Source of the DNA: Marsupella aquatica
Taxonomy: Eukaryota > Plantae > Marchantiophyta
NCBI GenBank assembly: GCA_973895155.1
Contig: OZ316891.1
Location: 16,767,651-16,831,650 of the forward strand
Length of the DNA stretch: 64,000 nt
Direction: 5' to 3'
How positions within the stretch are numbered: position 1 is the stretch's first letter; every line of letters begins with the position of its first letter. Made by a program: the position numbers and the translations under genes. Positions 2,243-44,067 of this stretch are shown here, piece by piece. Under the pieces are notes generated by a model. It did no database searches. It was not told where the DNA came from and saw only the letters and a program-made list of their open reading frames with translations.

Positions 2243-2255
2243 TAGTCTTTGTTTT

Positions 2256-2273
2256 TGGCGCTAGATGGAGGGG
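2256..2273 (+). promoter_or_regulatory. Primer-binding site, tRNA-Asn-like
   Basis: TGGCGCTAGATGGAGGGG matches the complement of the plant tRNA-Asn 3' end (CCCTCCTTCTAGCG-CCA, recalled) with one mismatch. It starts 13 nt after the LTR end. Confidence 0.7.
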
Positions 2274-8171: not shown

Positions 8172-11100
8172 ATGATATGCAAAGACCTAGGAGCGCCGGA
8201 CATCTTGATTGAGATCAATAATTGTACCATCAAGATGGTTCTCATAGACGGAGGAGCGGGAGTCAACATCATGACTGAGGAAACATCAGTCAGGTTAGGA
8301 TACCTCACGTATCAACCCACAGCCCGAGCTATCAGATTAGCAAACGGGGCAAGGATCCTTCCATTGGGCACGCTCACTCGGGTGCTCACTCTTGTAGGAG
8401 GGGTGGAGTTCTATCTCAACTTCCTAGTCATGAGGCCGGTTCGGCCCTCCTCTTATCCGGTCCTCCTGGGCAGACTGTGGCCGAGTAGTCACAGATTGGG
8501 GAAAAAAGGAGCTACGGTTTGGGACACCCACAGTACGAGTATCTTGGGCACTGGATGATTATCAGGGTGAAACCCCAAAAGGACCCAAGGAATAGATTTG
8601 GAGACCTCGGAGGAAGAGGAGCTCAATATGATTGAACTCATTTCATCCCTGTCCGAGGAAGTTGTCTTCGGAGTAGAGGCAACCCGGGAAACACATCTCC
8701 TGAATTACCCGAAGGTTGCTATTGAGTCCACCCCGAGCACCTCTACCGCCCAGACCGATGAAACGCAAAAACGATCCATCAATACGGAGGACACAGCTCC
8801 AGCTAAGCAGGGAGCCGATGCTGCTTCTACCAGTGCAGAGCCTAGTGACCACGAACCGGCCAAAAAACTGCCCGAGGCCAAAAACCCAAGGCCGAGACAT
8901 AAGAAACGAGTCTCCTAGGACCCGTCCATCCCGCAATTGGAGAAATTAACCCCAAATTCAAAACCGATCCTGGTTCCACCCATGTACGGAGGAGTTCGGT
9001 TAGCTAAGCTGGATGCGAGCCTGGACCCGAGCTTGCGGAACCAGGTGGAAGTCATAAGAAAGGAGTACTACCGGAAGTACACCATTGGTATGGATAAGTC
9101 TTTTAACCTGGGCCATGCTCTAACGGGAGGCAGAAAAATCTATCCAAGCACTGCTCAAGGAATATGAAGATGTGTTTGCATGGAGCCATCACGATTTGAC
9201 GGGACTCTCCCCCGAGTTGGGAGAACACACGATCAATTTGAACTTGGGGGCCCATGCAGTATGGCAGCGACAACGTCGCATGAACCCGAGGTACTCCATC
9301 TTAGTGAAGGAGGAAATCGATCATCTCCTCACCGCAGATATCATCTACCCGGTAATGGCCAGCGACTGGGTTTCTCCCATTGTCATTGTACCAAAGAAGG
9401 GAGGTATGGACGGAAAACCTAAGATTTGGATCTATCAGGACTATCATAAGCTGAACGACGCAACCTGGAAAGACCATTACCCGTTACCATTCACAAAATA
9501 TGGTTCTCGATATGGTAGCCCGAAACAAAATTTATACATTCCTTGACAGGTATTCGGATTATAATCAAATCTGGATCCGCCTCTCGGATCAGCTCAAAAC
9601 AACGTTCACTACGGAATGGGGGACGTTCGCATTTTGGAGGATGCCGTTCGGGCTATGTAACGCCCCAACCATGTTTCAGCGACTCATGATGAATATCTTC
9701 CACGATTTTCTACGGGAATTTCTGGAAATATTTATCGACGACTTCGCCATCTTTGGAACCATCGCCATGCACCCCAAACATCTATGACGTACACTACAAC
9801 GATGCCGAGAGGTTAACCTCAAGCTACATCCCGCCAAATGTTTTTTTGGGGTAGAAGAGGGAGTGTTACTCGGACATCGTGTGTCCAAACGGGGTATCGA
9901 GGTGGACCAAGAGAAGGTCGCGGCTTGGATGGCGGTGGTGTTTCCCATAGATCGAAAAGCGGTACGATCCTTCTTGGGCTGTGTAGGGTACTATTGTCGG
10001 TTCATTAAAGATTTTGCTAAAATTGTGTTGCCCTTAACCGAGATGATGAAGAAGGACGCGGTGATCGAGGAGACACCTAGGAGATGGATTGCTTTCGAAG
10101 AACTCCGTAAATGACTCACCACCGCACCTATCATGGTCACCCCGGACTGGAATAAGGAGTTCCATGTGTATGTCGATGTGTTAGGATTCTGTATCGGATC
10201 CGTGCTCAGTTGATGGCTAGCAAAGTAGATGGGGTGGTCATGTCCATCCTCATCAAGCTGACTGAGCATGATAATCTACTCATGTAAGAAGTTCCGGCAC
10301 TATCTGCTTGGCTACAAGGTCATATTCCACACGGATCATGATAGCCTGAAGTACATGGTCAACAAAGCGGATGTGACAGGACGGATAGCCCGGTGGGTGC
10401 TACTTCTCCAGGAATTTAACTATGAAGTTTGGGTTTGGCCAGGAAAGGCACATCTCAACGCCGACTTCTTTTCAAGGTTGGACGGCGTACCAGTCGATCA
10501 GCCAATTAATGATTCTTTTTGAGACGAGGAGTTATTCCACGTAGGGGCGGGAACGCCTACGTGGTACGGCTCAATAATCACCTTCCTCTTAACAGGCCGC
10601 ATCCCCGATGGCATCAATCAGGAGGCCGCCGCTGTGTTTTTATGAAAGGCCGGGCCATACGTCATGATACAGGGCCACCTACACAAGGAAGGAGTTAATG
10701 GGAAGCTACGACGTTGCTTAGAGTACAAGGAGACGCTTATCGTTATGCGGGCCTTGCATGAAGAAGAAGCTGGAGGCCATTTTGCGGCTATCACGACAGC
10801 CCGAAAGATTCTAGATTCAGGGTATTGGTGGCCTACGTTGCATCGGGACATACAACATTTCATCAAGGGCTATGACCTGTGTCAGCGGGCTGGGGCCTCA
10901 AGACAATCTCATCATCACCCTCTCACGTCCGTGCTTCCCTTGGCACCTTTCAAAAAGTGGGGTATTGATTATATCGGACCGTTCACTCCCGTTACCCGAC
11001 GACAAAGATGCAGGTACATACTGCTAGCTATAGATTACTCCACCAAATGGGTTGAAGCACGGGCTACGGTAAAGGACAACGCTGCAACCACCGCCAGGTT

Positions 11101-11820
11101 CTTATACGAGCAAATCTTCACCCGGTTTGGGCCGCCCTTGGAGTTAGTAAGCGACCATGGAACACACTTCCTCAATGATATCGTGGCCCAGCTTACGGAG
11201 CATTACCTAGTCAAGCACCGCAAGACTACCCCGTATCATCCTAAAGCCAACGGGCTAACAGAGAGAGCCAATCGCATCATCGGGAAGATCCTCAACAAGA
11301 TAGTAGCCGCGCACAAAACGGATTGGGATGACAAGTTGTACGCAACGGTGTATTTGTAGAATCTGGCTTACAAGACTACTACGAGTCACAACCCGTACTT
11401 TCTCGTGTTCGGCCAACATTTGTTGGTGCTCGTTGAGTTTGAAGTCCACACTCCCCGGGTAAGCATTCGGGATCGCTTACTCGAAGCTGAAAGTTTGTCG
11501 GACAGAGCTTATCAGATTGAAGCATTAGAAGAAGCACGGCTATTGGCAGCTCAACAGTCGTCAAGCAGTAGGTAGCTTCCAAGAAGTAGCACGACAAAAG
11601 ACTACAGAAGGTCGACGTCGTGACAGGTGACCTAGTCCTGCTGTACGATAGTAGGTACATGCAGTTTCCGGGGAAGCTTCATACCCGTTGGCTAGGGCCT
11701 TTCCTAGTCAATCAGATCTACCCTAATGGATCTTTGGAACTCGCAATGTACGCTGGCAATTTACTACCCACGCGAGTCAGTTACGATCGTGTGAAGAAGT
11801 ACCACCATCAAGACGATGAC
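8172..11820 (+). pseudogene. pol: pol of family A (aspartic protease, RT, RNase H, integrase) with stops and frameshifts
   Basis: LIDGGAGVN protease; WVSPIVIVPKK, RMPFGLCNAP and FIDD in RT; RNase H with KKFRHYLLG; integrase zinc-binding GGHF, WGIDYIGPF, SDHGTHF, YHPKANGLTER and WLGPF. Confidence 0.95.
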
Positions 11821-11855
11821 GCCGAGAGTGATGTTCATGAGGACGCTTCACAATT

Positions 11856-11868
11856 AAGCAGGGAGCTA
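11856..11868 (+). promoter_or_regulatory. Polypurine tract of family A
   Basis: AAGCAGGGAGCTA lies immediately before the TG start of the 3' LTR. Confidence 0.65.
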
Positions 11869-12868
11869 TGTGATGCCGCCGGTACGGCGGGTAATGAGTA
11901 ATTTGATCTAACCGCGCTTAGCACGTGCGTTAGGGGTATCTTAGGCCGTTATTATTAGCATAACGACAGTATTTAGGTAGCCATTTATGAGTAGGAAATC
12001 ATTAGTCAATAAGGGGAATTCATGTTCGGGCTGGCAGCGTGTCGCCATTCGCACGCTCGGGTTGAGAGCGTGTAATGGGCCCTTTTTCCCCCTCCCTCGG
12101 GTCCGTATAACAAACTCTGGGAGGCGGCCACTGACACAAGATGACCTGGACTAGCGAAGGGGCCGGTACACTGCAAGTGTGAAAGGCTCGGCCTATAAGC
12201 GACGAGGAAGCGTCGGGCGATCGATGAGCTCTCAAGGTATAAAAGGGGGGTCGATCCTTTGCAGTGCACCAACTATCCAGTCCACGCGCCAGCTTCGATC
12301 CCAGCTCTCTCGCTTTTCCTTAGTCACCTGCTATCTCCTCTGAATGTTGCACACGATCCTTTCCAGTTCGGCCATACCATTCTGGACTCAGTTCCTGTCT
12401 ATCGAAGGGCACTTGGCCGACTCGTTGAAACACGCCAACCCGTGCTGATATGAGATCAAACGCAAATACGAGAGAGCCATCCGCCTAGCAAGCCGCCACC
12501 ACTATCTCCTTAACTTTGAGTACCCATCCCAGAGTGAGCTTTACCGACCCGAAGAGTACTTCTTTGACGAAGGCAAATACATCGGCTTCTGGGAGGCATT
12601 GCTTTGGCTTCCGGACGAGGTCTTAAATATTCCGAGCATGATCGACTTGCAGCAGCACCACTTTGACCACATCTCTGCTCGGGTACGGGCTATCATCAAT
12701 CGCGCTACCACCACCTGACCGAGAGGAAGGAGAGATGTCCGCTTTTTCTAGTCACCCCGGTAATCAGTCTCGCAGTAGGAAGAGAAAGAAGCCCGCAGCC
12801 GTATCCAGGTTGCCTTTGGCCACGATTGCGGTAGCCAAGCTGACCATGCATTGCATGGGGGACAATGT

Positions 12869-14329
12869 TGTCATGGGGATTCTATGTTTAGTAAGTTCCT
12901 CCTAAGTATAGCTTAGTAGTATAGGATAGTAGTTTAAATTCTCGCATATGCAGTCTATAGTGTGCATGCTACAGTGCACAACCTACAGTGTGCATGCTAC
13001 AGTACACGGTCTACAGTATGCATGCTATATTGTTCGATCTACAGTGTACGATCTACAGTGTGCATGCTACAGTGTGCATGCTACAGTGTACGATCTACAG
13101 TGTGCATGTTACAGTGTACGATCTACAGTATGCATGCTATAGTGTGCATGCTACAGTGTGCATGCTACAATGTACTGTCTACAGTTGCTCCGCTCACGTA
13201 ACTACAGTACTAGCACACTTACTTGCCTTGGATGTGTGACACATGGCTTCCATCCGTGTGCCATGCTTGATCCGTGTGCTTGAGATGTGAGCACTATAAA
13301 TAAAGAGGAGAGGGGCTCTCTCCCCTCACTCCCCATTTTTCATCAACTAAGTTGTGAAGTCTTAAAAATCCATTGGACTTGATGATCTCTTCTATGAATA
13401 TAACCCTTATGAAGTAGACCCACTCATGCACTCTTGCTTAGAGCTTTGGCTCGGCCAGAGATATTTTGTATGAGTCGGACCTTCAGAAAGTGTTGTCATT
13501 TGATAGGAGATGGTTATTAAGTTCTAAAGAGTTGAAAAGTGCTCAACAATGCCTTGACATCATATGCTCCCTTTTGGGTGAAATCCTTATGAAGTAGACC
13601 CACTCATGCACTCTTGCTTAGAGCTTCGGCTCGGCCAGAGGTATTTTGTATGAGTTGGACCTTCAGATAGTATTTTCATTCAAAAGAAGATCAACCTATT
13701 AAGATAAACATCTGCATGTATATACTTAGAGTTAACTCAATGCATGATATTTGTTTGAAATGAATGATCTTTTCGTTGAATGATTCTATCTCTTGTCATT
13801 AGAATAAAAATTAGTTGGATGGAATATATTTGATAGTACGATAATGCCTAGACCTGTACCTATTCTTCCTCTCCCTAATCCTTTCCTTATTAGAATTCAT
13901 GTACTCCAAAAAGAGATAATGCGCCAGCATATGACTTTTCACTTTGGAGAAGCATTTGCAACTGTGGTATTAAATTCAATAGAGCCAATTGTATACCCTT
14001 ATGTAGTTTACGGGCAGGATTGGGCTTGCACAATCTTTATCTTGTATTGAGATGGATCTCAACAAACCTCCCTCCGATGAACCTCCTGTTTCTTTCTCGT
14101 TGGGAGATATTTGTTTTGTAACTCGACCCAAGGTAGCTGCCAAGGAGGCAATAGTCCATAGGTATGGAGAAAAGGGTTATGATGTTGTGCTTTCATCCAC
14201 GGAACCGTTCCTTATAGTGTCTGCTACCCAGTCTAGAATAATAATCATGATCTTAACTTAAACTCTCTCTTGACACTAGCAGCCATAGGCCCGGTGCTTC
14301 CTCAAGAACCACATTTTTCCCCCCAGACA
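12869..14329. mobile_element. Solo LTR, family E (1461 bp)
   Basis: Termini TGTCATGGGG...CCCCAGACA. 4-bp TSD ATGT (12865-12868 and 14330-14333). Family-A sequence is continuous across it. Confidence 0.8.
12955..13185. repeat. 14-bp minisatellite, about 16.5 units (CTACAGTGTGCATG / CTACAGTGTACGAT)
   Basis: Tandem units read directly in exact 14-bp register. Confidence 0.9.
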
Positions 14330-17300
14330 ATGTTCACAAGAACATCCTCCACCCCAAGCATGCATGCTATCTGAAGACCCAGGGGTTTGAGCACCTCGCC
14401 TCTCTCCCTTGGAACGGAAGCAGGTATTACGGGCAGGATATGACGGAGTTCATTCACTCTCCTGGGGGCAAGGGAGCTAAATACTAGTCATCTAGCTTCC
14501 CGGCCGAGGGGGTAGTGGACAATGGGTTCTTAATGAGGATGTGCCTCATCCCGGAGGTAGCAAAACGCCTAGAGTTCCAGCGGTAGCCCTCCACATGATG
14601 GAACCCAGAGGAGAAATATCGGTCGCTCAGGTCATCGAGGTGGAGAACTATCGGCCCAGGAAGTGGGCTCTCTTCTTCGTCAAGAAGTTCCACGAGGAGA
14701 TGGAGCGGAGAAGGAAGACTTTGTACCTTTGGCGGAAAGGCGTACTTCGCTAGCCACGTCAAAATCATCCTCGAGTGGTACGCTTGTTTTGACCGCCAGA
14801 GCCTCCCGCGTCTCAACAAGCCTGAGCTGACCCCGCCAAAATGGGTGTTCCTAGCCCAAGTAAGGCGACCGCAGCCCGAGGCCATAAGTCTGGCAACTGC
14901 AAGTCCTGCTACCCCGGCCCCGCAACCCGCCGCTGCTGCCCCGCCAGGCATACCCATTGACGTTATCACGACCTTAGACACGATCAATCGGGACAATGCC
15001 ATCGAAGTCAGGCCGGATGAAGCCGTACTCAAAGTAGATGCCACAGTAGCCGGGAAGATTCCTCCACCCCCCGCGGTTGTGCAGGAGAACCACCCATCTC
15101 TAGTGGGACCTGCCCGAATCCAGAAGGACACAGTCTAGACCATCCGGAACTCTTTGCGCCGGGCACATTTTTCAACGGTTGTTGGGAGATTTCTCGCAAC
15201 AGATCTCTCGGGACACCGGGGAATACATGGCCCGGAGGGTGGCCTACTTCTTCAACCAGAAGTTGGTTGTGGCAGTAAGGGCAAGACATGCACAGGCAGA
15301 GATCGCGCAGAGAATAGAGCGATATCGGGTTGAGTGTGCCTACCTGAAGGACAAAGTGGCAACCCTGGAGGCTGAACTCCAACAACTACGGCCTCAAGTA
15401 ACGGCCACGGAGGACCAGGTCGCTGAGGCTAGAGCCCAAGCCGCCTTAGCAGTACAGGCCGGGCTCAGAAAGGACGTCGAGATTGCGCAGCTCCGGACCA
15501 AGATTGACGGTTTGCAGGGGCAAGCCGTCAGTTGGCAAAAGGAACTGGAGGAAGCTGACTCCAGGTCTCAACGGGACACAGCCAAGATTGACACCCTGAA
15601 GGCAGAGGTGGCGCGGCTTCAAGGAGAAGTCACAAAACAGGCCCAGTTGGTGGACAAGCTGATGAGCAACACCCAGCAATTGGAGGAGGCATGCCAGGAG
15701 GCCGTGGAAGAGGTAGACGCGGCGAAGCGGGAAAATGAATCTCTGCTGGACCAGGTCCAGCTACTCAAGCAGGATGCCGACAGGCTTAGAAGGCAGCGGG
15801 ATAGCCGCTCCCACTCTGGCGGCTCTGGCAAGCGTGCCAAGCATTAGCGGCGGAGTAGGATTAGAGTAGAGCTAGGAATAGCTAAATTAGGCTATAGGGA
15901 CAAGCACCTACCCTAGTTAAAGCAGCACTGCCATGTCGTACAACCTGCGTAGATTAGGATCTTCTATTAAGACAAGCCATTTTCCGGCCTGACAGCCAGC
16001 TTAGTTAGGACCTTAGTTAGCGAATCTTCGGGCGCAAGGGCACTCCGTTCCTCGGCCCTTAGTATTTAGCGCACCCCTCGGTAGAGGCAGGGGGATTTTT
16101 AGTCTCAGTGTTGGACATCCACGGTATGTGCGGGGAGTCCCAACCTCTAGGAGTGAAAGAGTACCAAGGGAGGGTGTAGGACTAAGCTTGCTAGGCAAGT
16201 GCGGAGCCGGGCTCCATTGTAGTGTACATCCTCGGCCTTGGACCTGTTCATTCCAGGGCTTTCGGGTCAACTAAGTGTACACATATGTCTCCTATGTAGT
16301 AAAATCCTTTCCCACTATTTCCTTTGTGTAAATCAAGATTGTATGCTTGTGCGTATGTATATGTGTGAATCTCATGTATAGGTGCCAACGCTTGGCCAAA
16401 AACACTACCCAAGCCATGCACAAGGTGCAGCTTGCGGGTAAGTGGTTGCAAGCCCGGGTTTAGTACCTATACCATCAAATCCGGATCAAAGGCGGACAAC
16501 ACGAAGGCTTAGAAGCCCGTAAGCCGGGGTCGATCCTGCTATCGACTGAGGTACGTTCCAGCGGTGAAACACAAACCATACCTAAGAGGTGTTCGTATAT
16601 GACAATAGGCGCACTTAGCGCTAGTTTATGTGATTTAGGTGCATTCCGTGCCTCCCTCCCTACCCGAACCCTCATATTGACAAAGGATGTGCCTGTCTAA
16701 GCCGAAGCCCGGGTTAAGGCCTAGGCTGACAACGTGACATGAAGCCAAGCACTTAAATACTACGCCTTGTTTCTTCAGCCGCTCTGTTTGGTTGTCGGCT
16801 CGCCGCTGTAAGTTCTCCATCTTCCTCTTGCTTTCCTACAACTCCTCCTGTACTTCATCTAGGTCCTTGCGTGCCTCCTCCAGCTCCTTTTGGGCTTCCT
16901 CCCATTCCTTCTTTAAGGTAGCCCTCTCCTCCTGGGTTGCTCTTAGCTCTTTGTCGAGCTCCGCTACGACCTCAGACTCCATTTTATTCATCTTGGCATA
17001 AGTTTGATCGAGCTGGTCGTCTTTCTCACGCAGGTTGGCCTTGAAGCTTGTCGTCAGGGATGCAAGCTCCTGGTGCAGCGCAATAATCCCTTGATAGGAT
17101 TTCCCTAACTCGGCCTCCTTCTACTCAAGGGCTCCGCGGATATCCTTGAGTTCCCCCTTCAACGCCCTTTCCCTTCTCTGAGTCTCCGCCATGGCCCGAT
17201 TGGGGGGATCTCTTCGTGACAGCAAATAGCAAACAACAAACAACAAACAGTAAATAGCAAACAACAAAACTCATACAAGCAAATAAGCACCCAAAAAAAG

Positions 17301-17969
17301 ACACTGAAGGATAAGAAAATATTGCCACATATATTGGACAGGAAGCGGCCATTGACTACATTTACACTAGCGTCGAGTGCTATAAGGAAAACATTTGAAT
17401 AAAAACCTCTTTGAACTACCGGCTATAGTAATAGCGTCGGGCGCTACTCTAATCCGACACGTCACGGCGTTCTTATTTAGTGTCGTTGTTCTCCACAAAC
17501 GGGTAAATAAAACAAGGAAAACTAAAGACCAGATCCACAACCACCACTCGACTCTGAGCCCGATTCAGAACCGCTACTTTCTGATCTATCAGTGGACTCT
17601 GCTTCGTCGTCCACATACTTGGATTTTGCAATATCATCTACGAAGTGATTCTGCACAAACTTTTTATCTGAGCCTCTCCTGAGTCTAAGACCCTTACTCT
17701 CCCAAGTAAGCGTCCTGACTGAATCTGCCCGTCGTGCCGCCTTTTCAGCATAAGAGGGGAGAACAAATGGCTTCTCCGGGGTCTATACAACGTTCCTAGA
17801 GACGTTCTTTCAAAGTTGAAAATGCCTTCGAAGATTCCACTCTGACCTGAGAATTTGAACTGGAGTTCTTTAGTTGAAGTCGGGAAATCGGGCAAATTTT
17901 CTAGACAAAAGGGAGTATAGGAGTTCTTTGGAAAAAATTATACAATGAGAGAAAGAAAGCTAAAGAAAA

Positions 17970-20900
17970 TTACTCTTCTGACTCTTCACTGTCCTCATCT
18001 CCAGATCCAAGGTCCACCACATTCTTCGACACCTCATCATCTTTAGATTGCTGAGAAGCATTGCCACCCTCACCCTCGTCTTCCGAATCAAAATTTAGAA
18101 TAGCACGGAGCCTGTCCTGCTTCTTACTTCCAGGAATCTTCTTAGGAGGAGTTGGTGCAACCACTTCTTTGTTCTGTAAAAGATCGAGGAAGACCTTACC
18201 GGAAGTATCAACAAACTCTGGCCGATTTTCCAGCCCAACAACAAAGCAACCAGAATAATCTCCAGCCACAAACGTACTACCGGAACCTACTGTCCAGTCC
18301 ATAATGATATCTCCAGGAAGAGTCACCAATTCCAAAATAGTTTGCATGAAACCCACAGGCAAGCGTGAATTTCCTGCAAATTGGAGCTCAGGAGTCGGGT
18401 CATGTCGCGGCAACAAAAACCCAATAATGTTAGTGACGGAAGGGTCTTCTTCATTCGATAGTGGCCGGAACTTGGGGTCTTTCGGGACCCTTCCCTTTGT
18501 CGAAATGCGGCAAAATATATTAAGAGTAAGTGTGAATATCTGCAACACAGTTTCCCAATGAAGGCAGTATAAGAAAACAGACACATATATTAGCGCTTGG
18601 CGCTAGTCAACCCTTCATCCTTACGAAAGATAAGTGAATTGTAGATATAGCGAATGCTAATAGTAGCGTCGGGCGCTAGTATGTGCAAGAGGAATTGTTA
18701 CCTGAGTATCAGATCGGGGCCTATACATTGGTGTAGTCATGACCACATGGTGGGTTGAAATACACTGGAAACACTTAGAATCCTGGCAAGCCGCAATCAC
18801 TTCAGATACCTGATCATAGTCTCCTCTGTGTAAAATTGCAAGTAGGCCATCGTCTGCCAGGAACGGCTCCATGGCTCGGAAGAAAGAGCTGGGAATAGTG
18901 TAATCCTGAAGGTTCCACTTGGGAACCTTCCGATCAAGAAGTGTTGGTTTTAATCCAGTGGGAATGTAGATGAAACCAGCATCCACACCAAAGCCCCTCT
19001 CTTTTCCTCCATGAATTACTCCCTTCTCTCTATCTCCTGACTTTACCAATTCCTTTCCCCAGGCCTCAACTTTAGTAACCCACATGGGCTTCATCCCCTT
19101 GTTAAATACCGAATCATAAAATTTGTTTAAATTGGACTCCACAAAATAGTGTCTAGAACACCTTCGCTTAAAATTCCCGACATCTCTCTGGAGTCCATAG
19201 GAAATAACGTCTTGAGTAGATGATGCTGCTCTATCCTCACCGGCGCCTCTCTTTTTCTTTTTCTTTGTGCTAGTTGCGTCAATAGGGACAATGGATTTTC
19301 CAGCACCATCCGGGGTCCCTTGATCCGGGGTTTCTTGAGCTCTAGTGTTTGCCTCCGATGCCTGAGGAGTTGCATCATTCTTCCCTTTGGCAGCCGGGAC
19401 CTCCGTGTCGGACTTTCGACCTCCTGTTAGGCACAAAAACTTGCATGAGTCCAACCTTTCAGACTAGCGCCAGGCGCTATTAATCAAAGGAATTTCCAAA
19501 TGTAACTCCTGCATAAGCAACGCCAACAAGTAACCAAAAAGCGCTTAGACTACTCACTTTTCTTGAAGGACCTTGTGGAGTCACTTGGTGCAGCTGACTC
19601 ATTCTTTGCCTTTGCTCTTGGCTTACGACTTCGGTCAACGTGCATGACAAGAGACTCACAATTCTTTTGTAACTCAGAGGCAGATTCGTCAACATCAGAC
19701 TGGAGACCTTGCTTCGTTGCAGTCACATAGTTGGCAGGGATCTGGGACTTCTGCAACTTCATGAAGGCATCCTTCTCAGCTTCGTCGAACGGTAAATCCC
19801 ATTTGTCTGTGTAGAGGTACCATGGACAGTGAAGTCTCTCCCACTCCGACAATGAACGTGGTGGAAACTTTCCCTCCGCTGGGTACATCGAATACAGGTC
19901 AAAAATAGCGTCTCCCTCTTCAATAGACACCCATTTCTGAAATGCAGCCGGGTATGCCCATAGAGTGTCAGGAGATCTAAGCTCCATCCACATGTAAAAC
20001 CGGTATAGATATCGTTTGGCTCTCTTCCGGATCCGCTCTGTGTAATCTTCCTTGTCGGCATATTTGGAAGGCCACAAGTTGTTGAAGAATTTTGCCTTGA
20101 CAAGATCCCCAAAGTTTCTGAATTCATCGAGAATGATCTTAAGCATGGCCTCTATTGACTCACACCCAGACTTTGTGAGACGGTCAGCCGGCATCCGGTC
20201 ATAAATCTGTTTGAAGGAAGTGTGAAGCATTCCAGTTGCAATTCCCTCCACAATATTCCAAGTATGCCATGTATGGCACCACTGCTTCATAGGCTCGTCG
20301 TTGACACTTGCAAGATGGAAAAACTGTTTCCGAATCTCGGGAGTGCAGTGGGCTACTAGAAGGGTGCACCTCAATTTTGGATCTAGGTATGAAACAGCAG
20401 TAAACAACCTGGCTCGATCCATTGTGCATACAACTGTGTCTGGCTTCTTCTCCCGTTTGTTCTTCTTAGTTACGGGATACATCTCAGCACAGGTTCCCAA
20501 ATAATCTCCAAAATCCGGATGAAGTAAAGGGGTGATGTTCATCACTTTGATCGACCAATCTTTGGTCGCCTCCTTCATCATTGCCTCATGCCTCTTTGTG
20601 GTCTCCTCTTCTGACCAAGGAGCCCCTTGAGCTTTGGCTAAAGCCATATCAGACTTAAATTGATTTGAGTAAGACTTGATTTTGTCCACACACAGAATGT
20701 AGATGAGAGTATCCTGTGGCATTTTATGTGTAAACCAAGACCCCTTTCTTGTCTTCTTTTGGATCGCCTCAAACTTTGCCATGTTTGCGCTGTCGATGAG
20801 TGGCTTATAGTGATCAAGATCACGCGACAGAATTTGGGAAATTCTGTCCGCGTCAAGAATCCAAGAAGGCTCGACGACTGCTTGTCCAAGCCTGGATGCA

Positions 20901-21581
20901 ATGAAAAGGAATTAGTAGCGCCGGGCACTAGCAAAAATTGGGGAATGAACACTTTTGCAAAGCATGTTTGGTCCAAAATGAATGACCAGGGTTACAACAG
21001 TTAACGAATAGAACTTACTGGTTCACGGTGTGCATTGCCGCCTCGAGCTCAACTAGCGAACCTCTGTCACCATTGAAAATGATGCAAATCACATGAGGAT
21101 GATACTTCAAGTTGTCCGGATTCTCCCTGGTGTTGATTGACCAGGAGTACAATCGATGATTTCCGTCAAACACACAAAACATTTTATCTTTTAGAATATG
21201 GAACGTTGGGTCCGCATCACACTCTTCCTCAAACTTGTCGTTCTTTGCGACCCAGATTGGATCCCAAGAGTCCCGGATATCGCTGGTGCATATCTGAGGA
21301 ACCCCATCGGCATTCGCAGGCTGAACGTAGAAAGGCATCCCAATGCGCGAGTTGTACTCGGTGACCCAGAATGATTCTTTCAACTTCTCAATCGATGCAC
21401 TTTCTTTCTGTAAGGTTCGAACAACCTCCATGGGGAGCAATCTACAAAGAGGAATTTGAGGTGGCTCCTTATCGAATCCTCGAAAATCCTTCTCGAACAA
21501 CAATGCGTGCTTTGATATTACCTCATCCATTGATAAGCCAATGTCACTAACTTCACCCATGGAGACCTCCTTAGGGTCCAT
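17970..21581 (-). CDS. Spliced ParB/Srx-domain plus DNA amino-methyltransferase-fold fusion protein, 1062 aa (exons 21581-21019, 20891-19558, 19423-18702, 18539-17970)
   Basis: Three GT-AG introns join four ORFs in frame with no stops (3189 nt). N-terminus has IPLCRLLP..VR, KLKESF, FDGNHR and terminal VN (ParB-like). C-terminus has RLPVGFMQTILELVTLPGDIIMDWTVGSGSTFVAG..SG..VVGLE (motifs X/I of N6_N4_Mtase). Upstream VDAGFIYIPTG and FLADDGLLAI occupy the motif IV/VI positions (beta-class order). Confidence 0.8.
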
Positions 21582-22879
21582 TCTCCCTCTCCTTGACCTC
21601 GGGTAGGGCTATGCAGATTCAGGTTTGGAAGTTGATAGGGATGCAGTCGATCAAGTGACGCGACGGGTGTATATTGAACCAGCGAATGAAGACTGAGAGG
21701 ACTCAGAATGACCACCATCAGCCTCCCCCATTCTCGTATCACCCAGCCAAAAGTTGTCGTGGAGAGCGACTCGACCACCCGACACTGTCGTACGCGCCGT
21801 GCAGTTCTTGTGACAATCACGTCTCAAAATGTACGGGACCAATAAAGGACGCACATACGCACTTGAAAAACTTGTACAGTCCGAGGTCTGAGCGCTTAGA
21901 CGGACTAAATTATCCCAAACGAGCGATCTCCACCTCGTATTAAGACACCGATACAATGGACCCACCCATTCGATTACAACGGTCCCAAGTACAGATGGCA
22001 TTCTCTGATTGGACTTTCATCCCAGACAAAAGCAAAAAGGGTTCCGTGAACCTCAATCTACTATAATATTACCGTTGGAAAGTGACCGTTGGAACCACAT
22101 CAGTGTTGGTAGTTGTGGATAGCGCCAGGCGCCATTATACAACATACCTTCAAATGTATCTGAAAAACCGTCTTCATGTAGATACGGGCAGTACTGTCAA
22201 TACTATTCTCTATAAATTTTCCAATTTTGTGCAGGTGTTGACAAGCCAACTTTAGTAGCGCTCGGCGCTAGTATTCAAATAAATGATGAAATCGGAGTCC
22301 AATGACAACAAACATGACCACATGAACCCATTCATTCAACGAATATTCCAATGAATTACAATAGCGCCTGGCGCTATTAAAATGCACATCAATTGAACAG
22401 AATTTGTTGAAATAAAAGTAAAAAATAACTCCAAACGGGTCTGACTTGTGATTCCTTTAATTAATAGCGCCCAACGCTATCAAAAACAATTTAAAGATAA
22501 GACATGTCACGACAGTGTTAAGGACACTTTGTTTCTCATAATAGCGCCGAACGCTACTAAAAACATTGATAGCAAACGAGTGTTTACAACAATTTCAAAG
22601 AAATCGATCAGGTTTGCATTCAGAAATACAATGCTAACACTGGAGTAGAACCGGAAATTAAAGCTTGGTATTCTGAATTCAAAAGCATTGACACCGATGT
22701 AAAAATGAACGGTTGTGCCGTTCATATACAAAATGTTACAGTACACTAGAAATCCGGCATACGATGAAGGAACGGTATGCATTTTCTATCGGAAAAATGT
22801 GTGGAAACAGATCCTATCAACCTCGATGGATCCTCCAAGTCTCTCCAGCACTCGAACGATATGCTCTGACAACGGGAAA

Positions 22880-23308
22880 TCAGTCTTCCCACCAACTTGG
22901 CTTGTACGCATCGGAGTCGTCATTCGAGTCGCTTGATCCATACCACACAAATCCTTGCCTACTCGGTGATGAGTCCCCGCTCGAAGAATGATCACTCTTA
23001 GTGGATGAAGAAGGCTCGGAGACACCCGTGCAGATAGTGTCGGCTCTCGGACGGCCGACTAAAGCAAGGGCGATATCCCTAGCGGGAACAGAAGTCGGGC
23101 CGCTTGGATTTGGCCGACTGGCTCCTTCGCTGTGGCCTGCAGGTGGGGCATTCTTCGTCTTCGAGATGAGTTTGCCCTTCTTCGAGATTGGAACCGTCAT
23201 CCTCTCGGCATTCGGCCGAGGCGGTAAGCTATTTGATGCGGGGGTCTCCCGGTCGGTGTCGCTTGGGACAAGTGCCTCCTCCTTTGCCTTCCCTCGTGGA
23301 GGTGCCAT
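22880..23308 (-). CDS. Small S/P-rich ORF (142 aa, MAPPRGKAKE...) in the MULE; separate gene or upstream exon
   Basis: Open frame with basic and low-complexity content on the same strand as the ParB-MTase gene. No recognisable domain. Confidence 0.35.
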   Translation of the reverse strand: MAPPRGKAKEEALVPSDTDRETPASNSLPPRPNAERMTVPISKKGKLISKTKNAPPAGHSEGASRPNPSGPTSVPARDIALALVGRPRADTICTGVSEPSSSTKSDHSSSGDSSPSRQGFVWYGSSDSNDDSDAYKPSWWED

Positions 23309-24071
23309 TGAAAGTGAGGATGAGAATGAGAACAAGAAGCGCAGACAAGAATGCGAACGAGGACAAGAGCGCGAACTAGGACGAGAATGAGAAACGAGGA
23401 CGAGAACGAGAACAAGAACGCGCACGAAGCAAAATAGAACCACTGGGCCCAAAAGCAAGAACAAGAACCACGCGCCCCAAAGATGAGCCACAACTGTGAC
23501 TCAGTGAAGAATGGCTCAACAATGAGGTTATCGGAGAAGAACGGCGAGATATAAGGAGAATTCGCACTTGGTCCAGGGTACCCACTTCGAAGAGGACCCT
23601 CTGAGAGCACTTTCGGAGACGCTTCCTTTCTGATACATTTGGACCCGGGCGGATCGGATTCACAAAGATCCAGTGGAGATCTTCAAGTGTGCCAACTTAA
23701 TGACTCGTATTGTATCGCATTATCGTACTTTTCCTTCCATTGAATGTTTTCAAGTCCATTGAAATAGGTAGCGCCAGGCGCTATTATTAATTGCCTTCGT
23801 ACTCCTCACCCAGAGGTAGCGCCAGGCGCTATTATTATTGGCATTCGTAGTCCTCACCCAAGAGTGTTTTACACTTAGAGGTAGCGCCAGGCGCTAGTAA
23901 CTATGAACCCAAATCTTGCCATTGGTAAGACGACAAAATATCATTGATGGAGTGCGTCCAAATCTATAACGACTCTATAGTGAGAATGAAACGTTTACTT
24001 CTCGTACTCGAATCTCATGATAAACATATTTCATTTCGCGCGGGGCAAAGGCATATCCCTCTTTTGAAGCC

Positions 24072-27000
24072 ATGGCTCAAAATATTGTTGTCACAAGGAA
24101 GGACACTCGGGATGTAATCACAATTCCCGTCCTTGAATCATCTGAATCAAAGCGTGTTTCAGAGGAATATTTGGGAGTGAGATTTGATGTCGCCAAGGAG
24201 TCTATTTTAGCAATCTTGTTAGTGTCGGTTTGTTTGGGGAAGACTCCAGTTTTCTACGATGTTGTTCATGGTCAAAGGTATTGGACTTTGGAGGCTCAGA
24301 AAGAATATGAGGTTTTTGTTTTGAGAGATTCTGGGGCCTCCTGTACTTGTCCTCCCACAGCGGCTGAACTCGATGTCATTGAACTCTCGGAAAGTTCTAG
24401 AGATGATAAGCAAGCGACAACTACTCTCGGAGAGAAGATTCCAGTTTACCCATCCGAGGTTAAAAAGGAGTGTAATGCGGATCGAGAAAAGATTGTGCCT
24501 TTAACTGTGTACCGGCAGAGTGCAATGGATACAATCTTGAAATCCAAAGGTCATAGTGAATTGTCTCGGTTTATAAGGGGGAGTGATTTTGTTAATCACG
24601 TAGTGCCTAGTCTTCCCACATCTTACAATGGGAATGTGGTTTTTGAGTTACCCCCGATAGACTGTGTGAACGCTGGTGAACGTTTGAAAGATATGGATCG
24701 TGGTAAGGATTGTTATTATTGGACTCGGATTCTGAAAACGTCTTCAAATGTTCTTCCGAAGAAAATGTGGGATTTTGGGAAAGTCCAGTGTACCGGATCG
24801 CTGCAGTGTCGAAATAATGCTTGTCCGTGGTGGAAAGACAACAAGTTTCAAAATAATGAGATGTGGGCAAGAACCCCAAAACTTTCAGGCCCATTCCGAG
24901 TTGGGGAATTGATCTCCGAAGGTGGAGTTGTTTGTCACCATTGCTCCGAACCTCCGATGTGCATTGAGGCTTGCCCTGCTCTAATGTTCTACATGAATCC
25001 ATCTGCGAAAGTTGACGTTAAGTCTTTGGCCCACATGTCACGACTAGCTGTTCATATGGGATTTCACAATCATCCCAGTCAACGGGTCTTTTCGAGGGAG
25101 GCAAAAAAGGTTGCAAGGTCTCATCTGGAGAAGGGATTCACTGCAAACCCCATGGCATCCCCAGCAGGGATAAAAAACTCTACGACTGAGACACTGACAA
25201 ATACATTTTGCGAGGCCTCTGTTGAAGAAATCTCTCTCGAAGAAGAGAAGGAAATTTGGGAGTCCCTGATGGTCGTGGCATCTCCTCAGAAGTTTGCATC
25301 TATGTTAAGGAGTGTCCGTCAAGATCAGAAGGGGAAAGGGGAACTGGAATTTCTTGTGAGGATGCAAAAGTGTATCCGACTGCCTTTTCTTCATAGGTTC
25401 TTGCTCCCTGGTCAAGGCTGTCGGGACGAGAGTGCTCATATCTTTAAAATGATCGTAAAAGGTGACGAGAGTGGTCTGGACCTGCTCCAAAGAATGAAAT
25501 CTGGTGGGTCGTTAGAGGGTTCATGGGTAAGTTTTGACGTGATGCATCGAAGCACGGCAGATTGGCTTACTTTTAGTGCCCATGTATATGATCATCATTA
25601 CCGGGCACTTTGCACCATATTCACTTGTGAGCTAAAGGCCGAAGATGCAAAATCTCTGGAGAGAGCCTGGCGTTTGATGCTAGAGGTTGCCAATGAAAAT
25701 GGTTTAGAGGATGTTACAATTCAGGGATTCATGGCAGATAATGCTCAGGCTGGTTGGAATGTTGTTCGAAACGTGTTCTTTGACGGTGTACCCGACCCAG
25801 AGCGAGAAAGATCAGATGCCTTTCATTTTTTCCAATCTTTTCATCGTCATTCCCAAGAAGGTGTGAAAGATGGAAAGCACGGAGAGCACAAGGAGATGTG
25901 GGATCGTCTTCGGAACGTGCCAACTTTCTTGAAAGCATATCGAATCTCGAGGGAAATCGATGACTGGTGGAGGTCTGGCAATTGTCACTCAGGCAAACTT
26001 CGGATGCTGCAAGAGTGGCTGTCTTGGTGGGTTGTTCGATGGAGACAATGGGGGAACTTCATAAGACTGGTGAGTTATACACTACTCTAGGATGCATGTT
26101 CCCATTAATAGCGCTCGGCGCTAGTGAAGCATGTGTGAGATAGAAGAGTTCCTTATCCGCAAGAGTAGCGCCGAGCGCTAATAATCCGTTTGGACTATGA
26201 GTGATGTAAGGACTTACTTTATTCTGTGTTCAACAATTCTTTACATGGAAATATCATCATTAGTTTATTAGCGTCTGGCGCTACTGTTATTTCCATTGTG
26301 TTGCCACTTTTGTGTGCAATGTTTCAGAGCAAGAGTGCCGAAGAAGTTGGGATGATTCCTAATTGTACTGGTTCAGAATCTAGGCATGCTGGAATGAAAG
26401 CATGGCAACAGAAAAAAAGGTTGGTCTGTTTGAAGGATGCAAAACGGACCAAAATAGAGCGGTTGCTCAAATTGCTGCTTATACTGCATACAAAAGGGGA
26501 TTGAGCAGAGGAACTGGCCCAACTATTTTTGAGCTTGCCTTCAAATCGGCAGACCTGGTGGGGTCACCGCGTCTCTTTGAGGAAGCCACCAATCTCCTCC
26601 TGTCAAACGCTGCTGATTTTGATTTGGAAAGAAGCGTTCTATTGAATGGTGATGTTGTAACTCGATCGGTGAAACGAAAAGGACATGCAACTGGGAACGT
26701 CTCGGCAGAAGACTCGCACAGGCATGATACCATCCTTGTTACTTCACCAAATACAAAAGGTTTGAAAAGGAGAAACCTGCATTCCACTGATTTTGAGAAA
26801 ATGCCTTCTACGCCTTCAGCCGGTGGAATTGATGCGGTCCATAATTTGTCAGAAAGCGATGCTTATGAGGAAGTTGTGGTCATTGACACACCTTCGCGTC
26901 AAGCAACAAGATCCTCTGTCCCACCAGTGACCCCTGCAAGACCTGTCGAGACTGCATATTGTCATTCAGTTTCCCCAATGGAAAGTGAAGTACCTCCCGG

Positions 27001-27853
27001 TGCCTCACAGTTGCGTCGGACCTCAAAACGGGGTGCGGGTCCAGTGTGTAACAGAACCCTTGGACGGGGAGGTAGTCGTGATGAATGTCGAAATCGAGTA
27101 AAGAAGGTAGGCCTTCCAAATCCAGATGGTGTTGTTGCAATTTCTGTGAGAGGATGCAAAATGTTCAGGGGGCAACCTTATAACAATCAGATATGGTTTT
27201 GCCCCAACAACCACTGTCACCAAAGCACAACAAGGAGAGGAGTCTCGGACATTCCCAATGTTCCTTCACATCTCCCAATTGCCAGAGGGACCAATCTTTG
27301 TGGAGCAGAGATTCAATTTTTGAAAGAACAAGGACTTGTTCTCTCTGAAGGCCGTGGAGATGAAATCGAAGCACCGTTGCCTTCTGTGTTACGGATTGAT
27401 GTCAATCTTTTCCCGGAGAGGATCAACCTAACTGACCCATCTGTGAGGTGTGCTTCAAGGAACAGGAAGAAATGCTTGCAAAGAGTGCATCTTACCCAAA
27501 CACATTTGAAGAGAATTGAAGCCTCTGAAAAAGAAGTGATGAGCGTCATTGGAGAGAGAGAGATCACGAGTGGAAATGCATCGGGGAAACAGTTTTGTAT
27601 CCGGACCCATGAACATGAGAGATCAGTCGCCTCTTATTGGGTTCAGATATGTTGTTTCCCATGTTGCTCCTACGAGGATTTCTACCGTCGGCATACTTAT
27701 TGGAAGCCTTACATGCCTTGCAAACATGTGTATTGGGTGTTCAAGAATGTGTTCAAACTAGATGTGCTCAATTCGACATTATGTAGCCAACCAATTCTAA
27801 CGTTGGGAGAAGTCCGTTACATACTTGATAGGCAGTTGGGAACGAGAATGTAG
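24072..27853 (+). pseudogene. MULE-type DDE transposase with GCM/WRKY-like zinc domain and C-terminal SWIM finger (intron 26070-26327; one frameshift near 26412-26418)
   Basis: CTGSLQCRNNACP...CHHC...HMGFHNHP; SFDVMHR; GFMADNAQAGW; ERSDAFHF; after the intron PNCTGSESRH (catalytic E region); SWIM-like CCSYEDF...PCKHVYWV. Confidence 0.8.
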
Positions 27854-28152
27854 ACTGTTGCTTTATCGTTGAACAGCTACAATTGTAGTTTGTCTTTTCT
27901 AACGGGCAGAAGTGTGAGTTCTTAAAGTGTTGTTTTTTTGTATAATACAATACGCGCTAGTATTGTATGACTTTGTTTTGACTTCGTATTTCGTGGCAAT
28001 ATATTGGAGTCCTTGTGTGAAATAGTCAAGAAATTTCCTCTGATGTTGTACAATGGTGGGACCCACCATAATATTGTCCGCACAATTATTGCATATATGG
28101 ACGCTACATACCCTGAAGAGAAGAAACTAAAATGCATACAAGAAAAAAAATA

Positions 28153-28286
28153 CTCATACAAGAAAACAGAAACTCATACAAGAAAACAGAACCTCGTACG
28201 AGTAAATAGATATGCTCATACGAGGAACTTGTTTACTTGTACGAGACAAAATTTTGCTTGTACGAGGCAAAATTGGCTCGTATGAG
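28153..28286. repeat. Subterminal array of seven CTCGTACGAG-type 10-bp palindromes spaced 20-22 bp apart
   Basis: Copies start at 28153, 28173, 28193, 28215, 28236, 28257 and 28277. Confidence 0.85.
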
Positions 28287-31200
28287 AATATCTATTTGCT
28301 ACTTGCTAGCACGATGGTTATACCCGCCCGATTGTTGACTGCTATGTGGGCCTCCTCTGCATCCCTCAGCTCCCGCTTCCACTTCTCCCTTTCCTTGACC
28401 GCATCGGCCAACTCCCCCTGGGTCCAAGTCAGTTTATCCTTGATAATCTGATTATTAGACTGAGCGGTATCCAATTGCCCTTGCATGATGTTTAGCTCAT
28501 GCCGCTTAATCCACAGCTCATCTTGGGCTTTCTTGGCAGCCTTCAGGTCTTCTGCCTTGGCTACCTTCTCTCTAAGCCGTCGGATGACCTCGTCCTTCTT
28601 TCTTCTCTCCAAAGCCATCGCTTCTTCCAATCGGCGTTTCTCCAACATCTCCCTCTGGAAAAAAGGTCCCTGCTCCAACTCCTCCCCAAAGATGTTGAGC
28701 GCAAGTTCCCCACACATCTCCCCGTACTCCATGGCTCTTTCTTTAGCATAGGTGGAGTGAGTAGAAGTCATCGGCATCAACCACCGTGGCCTTTGTTCCC
28801 AAGTCGCCTTTCGTATTTCTTCTATCGTGGCTGGAGGGCTGCCCCGTCTTTCTGCAAGCCGCCGGATGTCTTCTGGCCATTCTCCCCCAAGTAAATCCTT
28901 CTCCCTAGCCGGGGTTGCCTCCTCTTCTTCCCTGAGTCGGTCCTGAAACTCCTGTGCCGTCTGCTTTATTCTGTCAAAGCTTGGGGGGAGCGACATCTGG
29001 TGGGGGAGACTCGGGGCTGCTCTGCTGGGTGGGGTCCCCTCAAACTACTCTTGGAAGCGTGGGGATGAAGCGGCCACAGGTCCTTATTCCTGGGACATGA
29101 TGGTCCAACCCATAGCTGGAGTCATCATTGCCGTAGTCCTCCACCACCTCCTCCCCAACTTGGACTAACAACTCCCCTTGCTGCTCTCCTGGTCTTGCTG
29201 TGAACATGGCTTCCTTCCGATCATAGCTCACAGGTCCTAGTTCCTCCTCCGGCTTCCAGGCTGTCTTCTCCCTCCACTTACAGCAAACAGGAGCTTTAGG
29301 CTGCTTTCCCTCGGCTTCGGGACTCGAGGCTCCTACATACATTCTAACCCCCGGCTCATGTTCCGGCCTCCTTCTTTCCTTGGCTTCGGTAAAGGGGTTT
29401 TCCTTCATGAGTCGGCTTAAGCCGACCTCTGAAGGAGTGTCCTGTACCTGTGCCATTGCCGTTGCCATTCTCTTTTCCTTCTCCAGCAATTTCAGTAGAT
29501 TCTGCATGCCTGGTTGCTGCATCGGCAAGTCCTCCGTCCTTGGCCTAAACACCTGCTTGATTGTAGGGCTGTCGGGCTGGTTTGGTTTCTCTATTGCCTG
29601 CCTCTATTTTGGAACCTCCTCTGGTGCCCTTGCCTGCAGTGGAAGTATCGGGGTAAAGATCTGACTTTGGGCATACCGGCACAACAGCGGATGTGATAGC
29701 CAAGCCGGGACACACTTCCCATGCCAATGGCCTGCTGTTCCTCCTTCAAGATCTTCTTCAGTTGGGTGAGGAGGTACCCGTTGTAGTCCCGGCTTGGGTC
29801 TAGCCTCTCTGCCAGGTATACTTGTGCCTTGCCGATCTCTGCCCTTGGCAAGTTGCAGTGCATGGTGACCCGCAAGAAATCAATCATTTCTCCGATGTGC
29901 GTGTTGGTGCAGGTGTTTTGAAAGAAGCCATTCTTTGTTGATGGCCCTGGAAACGACCAGAACTCCTTGTCTAGCAAGGTCTTCCAAGTATCTACTTTGG
30001 TCTTATTGCCCATCGGCAAGCCAAACACTTCGGCAATCACCCGGGGAGTGAGATGGAAATCCTTCCCATACACCCTTGTGGAATCGGTCTTGGGCTCCCA
30101 AGATCCCACAAATTCTAATAAGTTTGAATCCGGCACCTCCGGCTTCAGCCATGGTAATTTCACGAAGGCTTCCAAGCCAGATCTGGCCATGAAGCCCTGG
30201 TACTTCTGAGTCTGCATAGCCGTAAAGCATGCATCCTCTTCTTGTGCAAAGTGTAATTGCACTTCCTCGGGGAAGTGTCATCTCTTGTTGGAACGGCATT
30301 GATGGGGTCGACCTCCTCTTCTTCGGCTTCTCCCTGCCTCCTACTTCCCTGCTCGGCTGGCTTCCTGGGTGCCGCCGACCTCGTTCTCCTTGCAGAGGTG
30401 GTCTCTTCGTTGGCGTTCCCTTTTCTCTTCATAGCTGCTATCGTGGATGTTTCTCCGAGGATGGTTGCCTTTGTCCACCCCTCCGTGCTACCCTTCAACT
30501 CCTAGTGTATGTCGTTGCAGCGGTTGATGGCTTCCCAGATGCCGACTATTCTGTTCTCACAAAACAGAAGGTCGTCGAGTTCGTCACCAGTAGGTGTCCA
30601 CGGGAATTCAACCATGATGAGTTCTCCTCCTAAGAAGGTGGACTTCTGCAGCTCCCACAGTCAAGCGAGCTCCTGCCATTCTCAAACAGCTCTCTCCAAT
30701 CTTCGTCCTCGTAGGTCCCAATGTACTTAGTTGCCCGTTCTAACAGGCATCCCCAAAAATGAGCAGTTTGATTGACGTTGCTCATACCCTTCTTTGAATT
30801 GATAGTCGGTATCTGCTCCCGCCCCAAGTGCTTGCCTAAGCAACTGACAGTAGTTGGCTTCACGTAGTCATCTGCTTAGTTCGTGCTTGCAATTGAGCCT
30901 TCATTCCTTGCGATCAATCCTTACCCCCATCTTGCCTGTTCTTCCTTCCCGTTAGTTACCCATAGCCACCGGTACTTAGCGCGCCCTAACCCTAATCGTG
31001 TTCCCTCCCCCGGCGTCCTTACTTCCGGCCTCGGCTCGGGTTCCATAGCTACCCTCAATTGTTTATATTTTTCTTGTTTTTTGTTACTATACTAATGTGT
31101 TTCCAGGGTACACTCCTGATTTTTACCATTTAAACTGGCCTAGTGATTCCTGGCTAGGCATCACAGAAGGGTGAGGGGTACAAGCAACAGCAAGCGACCA

Positions 31201-43869: not shown

Positions 43870-44067
43870 GGGAGACTCGGGGCTACTCTGCTGGGTGGGG
43901 TCCCCTCGAACTACTCTTGGAAGCGTGGGGATAAACCGGCCACAGGTCCTTACTCCTGGAACATGATGATCCGACCCATAGCCGGAGTTATCATTGCTGT
44001 AGTCCTCCACCTCCTCTTCCACTGCTTGGACTCCCGACTTCCCCCTCTGTTCCCCTGGTCCTGCCGT

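Follow-up and report, generated by a model that had tools for sequence, protein, structure and literature searches.

The pairing of ParB-like and methyltransferase (MTase) domains as transposon cargo, together with the idea that such cargo binds parS-like sites in its own element, is already in print for algal transposons. Here we compare those systems with an 11,123-bp Mutator-like DNA transposon at 17203-28325 of a 64-kb stretch of contig OZ316891.1 (the window, with positions counted from its first letter), in which a 15-bp palindrome, TAGCGCCNGGCGCTA, recurs throughout the noncoding DNA around a fused ParB-MTase gene. In Ectocarpus, Sola1-1_Ec32 carries a gene for an 1104-amino-acid ParB-like and N4C/N6A methyltransferase protein that is suggested to bind its own element and modify it (PMC12477816). 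Going by that description, our gene is alike in fusing a ParB-like domain to an N4/N6 MTase (1062 amino acids rather than 1104) on the strand opposite the transposase, and unlike in residing in a Mutator-like element of what is likely a land plant and in having a non-canonical motif IV. It also differs in the 15-bp dyad found in every intron and spacer; the string "palindrom" is absent from the main text of PMC12477816. Red-algal Plavaka, Zisupton, and Mutator elements carry PAG2/PAG3 cargo, and inverted repeats are proposed as parS-like self sites in these elements (bioRxiv 10.1101/2025.02.11.637652). As described there, PAG2/PAG3 share with our element a ParB-like domain and a PF01555 methylase as transposon cargo, but there ParB is fused to a 2-oxoglutarate oxygenase in one gene and the methylase to SET in another, whereas here one protein has both domains, and their repeats form tandem arrays beside PAG3, in contrast to single sites dispersed over all introns and spacers. 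Methylases of another class, fused to ParB and helix-turn-helix domains, occur in chlorophytes and chytrids according to Iyer et al. (PMC4738411).

Among plant elements, the nearest parallel is with VANDAL21/VANC21 and VANDAL6/VANC6 of Arabidopsis, which two papers describe as Mutator-like, with terminal inverted repeats (TIRs) that are short or degenerate, plus accessory genes (PMC5735166, PMC10398659). As in our element, one short motif is reported to be piled up in introns, intergenic DNA, and terminal noncoding DNA and to be absent from coding probes; VANC21 binds the motifs in these regions (PMC5735166), and its effect spreads into coding regions (PMC5735166; PMC10398659). The VANC motifs described there are 8-9 bp long, non-palindromic, tandem, and family-specific, whereas ours is a dyad of 15-21 bp with only 2 of 17 sites in a tandem unit, and the candidate reader here has ParB and methyltransferase folds. 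With bacterial ParB/parS and KorB operators our system shares a ParB-N fold and a dyad of about 15 bp that is present several times, but it differs from bacterial ParB in that no ParA was found, the gene is eukaryotic and contains introns, a methyltransferase fold is fused to it, and no helix-turn-helix was assigned. KorB operators are dispersed across a plasmid and are a nearer analogy than parS. MpDN4MT1 of Marchantia and N4CMT of a bdelloid rotifer likewise bring a beta-class amino-methyltransferase fold of bacterial origin into a eukaryote, but these are host genes with an intact SPPY and shown activity, whereas ours is transposon cargo without SPPY.

To our knowledge, only VANDAL/VANC, TnpA, and recently AtMu1 have been shown to be transposons that recognize and unsilence their own copies. 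A search of open-access full text, with Repbase and subscription journals outside its scope, found no description in land plants of a transposon like the present one. What is new is that the carrier is a Mutator-like element of a likely land plant, that each intron and spacer contains a defined dyad, that the catalytic motif is non-canonical throughout the lineage, and that there are hints of a half-site being conserved while its spacer varies.

At up to two mismatches, the palindrome has 16 matches in the window against 0.06 expected, a count that none of 100 shuffles reached. A 17th site, at 17368, has three mismatches, all of them C>T or G>A; the sole other three-mismatch match in the 64 kb, at 49337, lies outside the transposon and is not deamination-like. 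All 17 sites fall within 17203-28325, and the remaining 52.9 kb of the window hold none at two or fewer mismatches. No site touches coding DNA, which accounts for 64% of the element; P is 2.6e-8 if all 17 are taken as independent and 7.5e-4 if they are grouped into seven clusters.

Seven sites are shared among four introns, each of which holds at least one. Site 20916 is in intron 1 of the minus-strand ParB-MTase gene (20892-21018, 127 bp), 19465 in its intron 2 (19424-19557, 134 bp), and 18591 and 18664 in its intron 3 (18540-18701, 162 bp), while 26109, 26166, and 26269 are in the plus-strand transposase intron (26070-26327, 258 bp), an assignment backed by the intronless relative L001. The other 10 of the 17 lie outside confirmed introns. 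Five are found between a small open reading frame (ORF), ORF0, and the ParB-MTase start codon (22120, 22256, 22362, 22465, and 22542, spanning 22120-22556); three perfect sites occupy the divergent spacer (23769, 23817, and 23882, spanning 23769-23896), the first two within a 48-bp tandem duplication; and two, 17368 and 17432 (17368-17446), lie 3' of the ParB-MTase gene, at 165 and 229 bp inward of the left end. Near the right end, at 27945-27968, this copy retains only a right arm, GCGCTA, of a palindrome that is complete in other copies; one contig each of the public runs X1 and X2 has TAGCGTCGG inserted after 27953, making an 18th site. The rule is that sites occupy all noncoding compartments of the transposon, not introns as such. 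The original prediction, drawn from the letters alone, had put the palindrome in each intron and spacer and never in an exon, and both this pattern (17/17 noncoding, 4/4 introns occupied) and every site coordinate it gave proved right. It misplaced the cluster at 22120-22556 in the divergent intergenic region: ORF0 (23308-22880, minus strand) separates this cluster from the triplet, and the sequence places it in a tandem spacer or a 5' intron. The 10 within-cluster spacings showed no significant helical phasing (best P 0.15, at 10.5 bp).

Conservation within the sites points to the arms. The constrained part is TAnTAGCG...CGCTAnTA: 14 of the 17 sites keep the TAGCG/CGCTA arms unchanged, whereas CCNGG, earlier taken for the core, varies and is preserved in 7 of them, with a central pentamer that fits YYNRR in all 17. 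Outward, the consensus is gapped and symmetric, with A at position -1 in 27 of 34 half-sites, T at -2 in 22 of 34, and position 0 free. Departures from the consensus are mainly C>T or G>A (15 of 16), as first noticed. Counting 15 sites, with two of the triplet dropped, arm CpG positions were altered in 2 of 60 cases versus 13 of 60 for core positions (P = 0.004), which is, we infer, the reverse of unselected CG-dominated deamination. When this copy is compared with the family majority, 25 of 31 hand-picked rows in which it has A/T and most others have G/C fall in a CG or CHG context versus 33% expected, which reads as the signature of plant-type methylation on the transposon family. The arms look selected or shielded, since their CpG positions seldom change although this copy's changes against the family fall mostly at CG/CHG. 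For the three sites in 18500-19600, no variant reached 30% among 40 of 45 rows.

Sequences flanking the sites are unrelated in 135 of 136 pairs (median 35%), so the claim that flanks mostly differ, and that this is no simple tandem duplication, stands for those pairs and fails for 23769/23817, which are 91% alike in the 48-bp duplication. A hairpin under pairing selection was also considered and ruled out, positions 0 and 16 being complementary in 3 of 17 sites and the deviations not compensatory. Overall, the anatomy appears to be that of a site for a two-fold symmetric protein. The earlier idea of a binding site therefore survives in most of its parts (the palindrome is confined to the element in the window, free of exons, conserved in its arms, and beside a ParB-fold gene), except for the CCNGG core.

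The ParB-MTase gene has four minus-strand exons that splice into an open 1062-amino-acid frame, colinear with Riccia models (e.g., P0113) over all three junctions; the splice calls rest on reading frame and homology, and on these grounds the three introns proposed earlier are real. Exon 1 (21019-21581; further 5' exons are possible) encodes a ParB/sulfiredoxin-fold domain with DGNHR, exon 2 (19558-20891) an all-helical domain of unknown fold with 106 relatives at E<=0.001 and represented by a model of the homolog P0033, exon 3 (18702-19423) a linker and the N-terminal half of the MTase fold with a putative motif IV, YIPT, and exon 4 (17970-18539) the region of S-adenosylmethionine (SAM)-binding motif I (DWTVGSG) and an acidic tail. 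The ESM Atlas ParB/Srx score for exon 1 is 0.94. When residues 137-308 of the P0033 model (pLDDT 69.9) were compared structurally with VIA (48,161 matches), the top matches were KorB (Z 5.5, 3.1 A, 95 aligned) and pNOB8 ParB-N (Z 5.0), with PadC (Z 4.5) and sulfiredoxin (Z 4.3) on the same residues. On this model, the N-terminal domain is shown to have a ParB fold, whether of the ParB or the Srx-like subtype.

For the C-terminal domain, PF01555 is the Pfam match (E 4.4e-6 at exon 4), and no other Pfam family was found in the accessory gene. Foldseek with a low-confidence model of the homolog P0114 (pLDDT 45.9) matched M1.HpyAVI (E 4e-7), CcrM (1e-6), and N4CMT (about 2e-3); with an 864-amino-acid model it returned nothing at E<=0.001. 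Modeling thus shows a predicted beta-class methyltransferase fold with motif IV ahead of motif I. In CcrM and N4CMT the catalytic motif is DPPY/SPPY (PMC10406627). At the corresponding position, the putative motif IV is YIPT in this copy and YIPT or YLPT in others of the family; 17 Riccia-type homologs have D[LM]P[TS], and [DSN]PP[YF] is found in 0 of 140 fetched proteins. The stretch is called motif IV on the alignment register of CcrM-type enzymes. No ParA/ATPase family was found among the scanned transposon ORFs of at least 100 amino acids. Separately, more than 30 annotated Riccia sorocarpa gene models (among P0027-P0136) belong to the ParB-MTase family, several of them auto-named "Trimethylguanosine synthase"; they are apparently unrecognized transposon cargo. 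Exon 1 also resembles Ascomycota DUF3723 clusters (Atlas 0.93; PF12520 in 31% of members). DUF3723 reportedly appears in Starship papers, and fungal and plant transposon cargo may share a DUF3723/ParB-like domain.

The introns that hold the sites occupy old positions. Five named Riccia models and one other protein have deletions ending at P0113 residues 315-322, and intron 1 falls at 321; others show breaks where introns 2 and 3 lie, and exon-sized ORFs of relatives end in read-through just beyond the same donors. Because homologs at 25-45% identity, including Riccia genes at about 25%, have introns in the same places, the introns predate the sites or simply house them rather than spread them, which leaves unsupported the original prediction that introns act as carriers distributing sites along the coding regions.

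The same read-through offered a view of introns in distant relatives, since prokaryote-style ORF calls run on into them and the resulting peptide tails can be screened for translations of the motif. Of 91 proteins screened (19 of P0001-P0110 were left out as gene models, 9 of them by appearance), 31 reach an exon end, 28 of these with a tail, for 750 amino acids in all. The 15-bp motif translation occurs in two tails versus 0.07-0.08 expected (P about 0.004): P0001 (47% identity), whose transposase-intron tail reads SARR-stop about 35 nucleotides (nt) past the donor, compared with 39 here, and P0013 (38% identity), which has LAPGAS in intron 2. Half-sites with a 2-nt spacer gave four matches in three proteins (P0029, P0034, and P0088 twice) against 0.15-0.19 expected (P about 0.0002 before correction for seven spacers); spacers of 0, 1, 4, 5, and 6 nt gave 0, 0, 1, 0, and 1 matches in these tails, not significant, and the 2-nt form is absent from the 64-kb window. 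This test is post hoc, P0001 and the 2-nt pattern having been spotted by eye first, and it works at the protein level with codons unseen. It hints at a half-site common to distant families at 30-47% protein identity, with a spacer of 3 or 2 nt. Co-variation of the motif with the protein, suggested as a check, gained no support: on a quick tree (147 columns, support 78) one change of spacer type suffices, but 98-110 of 500 shuffles do equally well.

We regard it as very likely that the palindrome is the site of a protein encoded by the element, to judge by its confinement and symmetry, and the ParB-MTase is the protein we would favor, with rather less assurance. That recognition of the site has an anti-silencing outcome seems to us an even bet. 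On the full reading, a ParB-MTase-like protein would bind the palindrome and protect or reactivate the whole transposon against host CG/CHG silencing, much as VANC does, and here too we see the chances for and against as balanced. A dimer would read the two arms, TAnTAGCG(C), and tolerate the central YYNRR as a spacer. ParB proteins behave as DNA clamps, and such a clamp would give a physical route for spreading. The ParB-fold domain might accordingly act as a nucleotide-gated clamp that loads at the sites and spreads over adjacent exons, and a site might be kept in each intron, about 0.8-1.5 kb apart, because the clamp would load there and spread. Coding constraint would bar sites from exons, leaving old introns as places where they can persist. 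Lacking DPPY/SPPY, the methyltransferase fold is probably a non-catalytic binder of DNA or methylated bases, or has atypical chemistry, and would not be a classic writer of N4-methylcytosine (4mC) or N6-methyladenine (6mA) at CCNGG.

A bolder version, which we consider rather doubtful, envisages an old and widespread Mutator-like lineage in early-diverging land plants whose captured bacterial ParB clamp, gated by cytidine triphosphate, loads on parS-like dyads retained in each intron, slides, and shields the element through a catalytically rewired methyltransferase fold, families being kept distinct by spacers of 2 versus 3 nt. If true, no ParB-type mechanism of loading and spreading on eukaryotic chromatin would precede it, and clamp spreading would explain how a short motif can protect kilobases. 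The element offers a sharply defined candidate site together with an intact candidate reader, spacer variants that occur naturally, and liverwort relatives, of which Marchantia and Riccia are tractable. Should such self-recognition hold, it would yield an epigenome tool that is of bacterial origin, sequence-specific, and possibly able to spread.

Several results weigh against recognition of the palindrome by the ParB-MTase for the purpose of anti-silencing. The Z-scores of the ParB matches (4.3-5.5) are middling, and structure comparisons of models gave the helical domain no specific match and no assignable helix-turn-helix. The CpG observed/expected ratio does not rise or fall steadily away from the sites (0.66, 0.77, 0.76, 0.69), and there is thus no long-term footprint of local demethylation. 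The decayed locus L003, the sole metagenome locus with both genes, has no repeated dyad. The half-site here seems deeply conserved, a property that fits a host factor too, in contrast to the tandem, non-palindromic, and rapidly changing motifs of VANC. Finally, transposases can themselves be sequence-specific activators, according to bioRxiv 2026.08.24.746577.

This last point gives substance to the idea that the transposase binds the sites, as an activator or as an organizer of the transpososome. The AtMu1 transposase binds and activates its own elements in the same study (bioRxiv 2026.08.24.746577), our sites approach both ends, and our transposase has a Cys/His finger region. However, the binding by AtMu1 and TnpA reported there is terminal, whereas 15 of 17 sites here are internal, and the right end has an array of another palindrome, CTCRTACGAG; on balance we think the transposase an unlikely reader. 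A catalytic role for the ParB-MTase would make the palindrome the target of an active N4-cytosine/N6-adenine methyltransferase that marks the element as self by methylating CCNGG or the CpGs of the arms. The beta-class fold and SAM-binding motif I are retained in an intact 1062-amino-acid frame, the arm CpGs resist deamination, and eukaryotic 4mC enzymes act on CpG according to two reports (PMC10406627; bioRxiv 2021.02.12.428880), but the departures in the putative motif IV (YIPT/YLPT here, D[LM]P[TS] in the 17 Riccia-type proteins, and no [DSN]PP[YF] among the 140) and the position of CCNGG as the least conserved part make an active writer quite improbable.

Conservation of the half-site across families at 30-47% protein identity, if it holds, is unlike the fast VANC motifs and would suit a host transcription or chromatin factor exploited by the transposon. 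Such a factor is hard to square with the absence of the palindrome from the 52.9 kb of neighboring DNA, with a literature search that did not find the exact 15-mer, and with a spacer that seems to depend on the family (2 versus 3 nt), as would suit co-evolution with an element protein, and we consider it distinctly unlikely. ORF0 might instead encode a separate VANC- or MudrB-like factor, given a three-gene layout with site clusters on either side of it, but its low complexity, its lack of a Pfam domain, and a composition like the disordered N termini of Riccia ParB-MTase proteins, which would make it a possible 5' exon, leave this a slim chance. Footprints of a miniature inverted-repeat transposable element (MITE) or introner, or RNA/DNA hairpins for splicing, could account for a perfect dyad with at least one site per intron. 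The MITE footprint had been named at the outset as an outcome that would overturn the binding-site idea, and the unrelated flanks around the sites speak against it, as do the old intron positions, the 10 of 17 sites outside confirmed introns, the variable distance of intronic sites from the acceptor (24-204 nt), complementarity of positions 0 and 16 in only 3 of 17 sites, and the lack of a relevant Rfam match; this family of explanations is largely refuted and has hardly any chance of being right.

The borders of the element are set by a host repeat that is split between 17202 and 28326 and runs uninterrupted at 37958-39094 in the same window; the insertion target is a repeated retroelement-like sequence. 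The 9-bp target site duplication (TSD), GCCCGATTG, is identical at 17194-17202 and 28326-28334 (both plus strand) and single at 38413-38421 in the intact host copy. Imperfect 31-bp TIRs occupy 17203-17233 (plus) and 28295-28325 (minus), with 21 of 31 bases pairing without gaps. Mutator-like elements (MULEs) have TSDs of 8-11 bp (PMC6446971) and TIRs that are 14-500 bp long, degenerate, or absent, and the 9-bp TSD and 31-bp imperfect TIR (21/31) fall within both descriptions. The transposon is a multicopy family, because contigs from four public runs fill 29-30 of 30 bins along it at 80-100% identity and empty-site joints occur in three of the four. Named homologs come solely from the liverworts Riccia sorocarpa and Calypogeia fissa, at about 22-30% identity, and the carrier is likely a liverwort-like plant. 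At or close to 18984, 19465, and 22362, some contigs run into unrelated or motif-bearing sequence, with a perfect palindrome abutting 18984 in exon 3; these loose ends are possibly deletion derivatives or diverged subfamilies recombining at sites.

The transposase appears to be a divergent MULE-type DDE member, called divergent because Pfam hmmscan gave no match though its top three ESM Atlas clusters carry PF10551 MULE in 61-87% of members (scores 0.92-0.94). Exon 1 (24072-26069, plus strand; four relatives at 43-53%) holds a Cys/His zinc-finger region and the first two acidic residues with a DxxH motif, acidic and DxxH motifs being conserved in the alignment of relatives, and exon 2 (26328-27853, plus strand) holds the putative catalytic E. 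A Cys-x-Cys...CKH pattern in exon 2, seen by eye and with no Pfam match, is presumably SWIM-like. This copy has a frameshift near 26411, where other copies differ by one base. A relative at L001:2009-3394 lacks the intron; it confirms the splice frame, and intron presence varies within the lineage. Viral contigs held no transposase relative, and a metagenome scan gave three loci, two short transposase contigs and one decayed element, with no repeated palindrome in any of them. In L003, an AT-rich sequence, a ParB-like fragment (4436-4642, minus) lies head-to-head with transposase fragments (9953-10846, plus), the layout seen in the window. ORF0 (142 amino acids, low complexity, no Pfam match) may stand alone as a small gene or belong to the ParB-MTase gene as a 5' exon, inspection of splice sites between the two having found no strong in-frame splice.

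A second, CTCRTACGAG-like palindrome is present in seven copies 20-43 bp apart at 28153-28286, plus one copy at 17270, and this subterminal repeat would be a better candidate transposase site than the 15-bp palindrome. A scan against Rfam found nothing relevant, its sole matches being weak ones to miRNA families on the right-end repeat, far under the gathering score. A 10-bp inverted match, ATATTGCCAC and GTGGCAATAT, each followed by ATATTGGA, lies at 17319-17338 and 27993-28008, 117 bp and about 320 bp inside the left and right ends; the pair might represent a third binding motif or be what an older nested insertion left behind. The surroundings (1017-16740, 28326-31081, and 36072-51732) are nested, decayed retroelement-like repeats with a zinc knuckle (6735-7634), a protease (8133-8558), an integrase (10646-11359), and coiled-coil ORFs in several copies, and a tandem array of about 20 units with a 14-bp period occupies 12921-13200.

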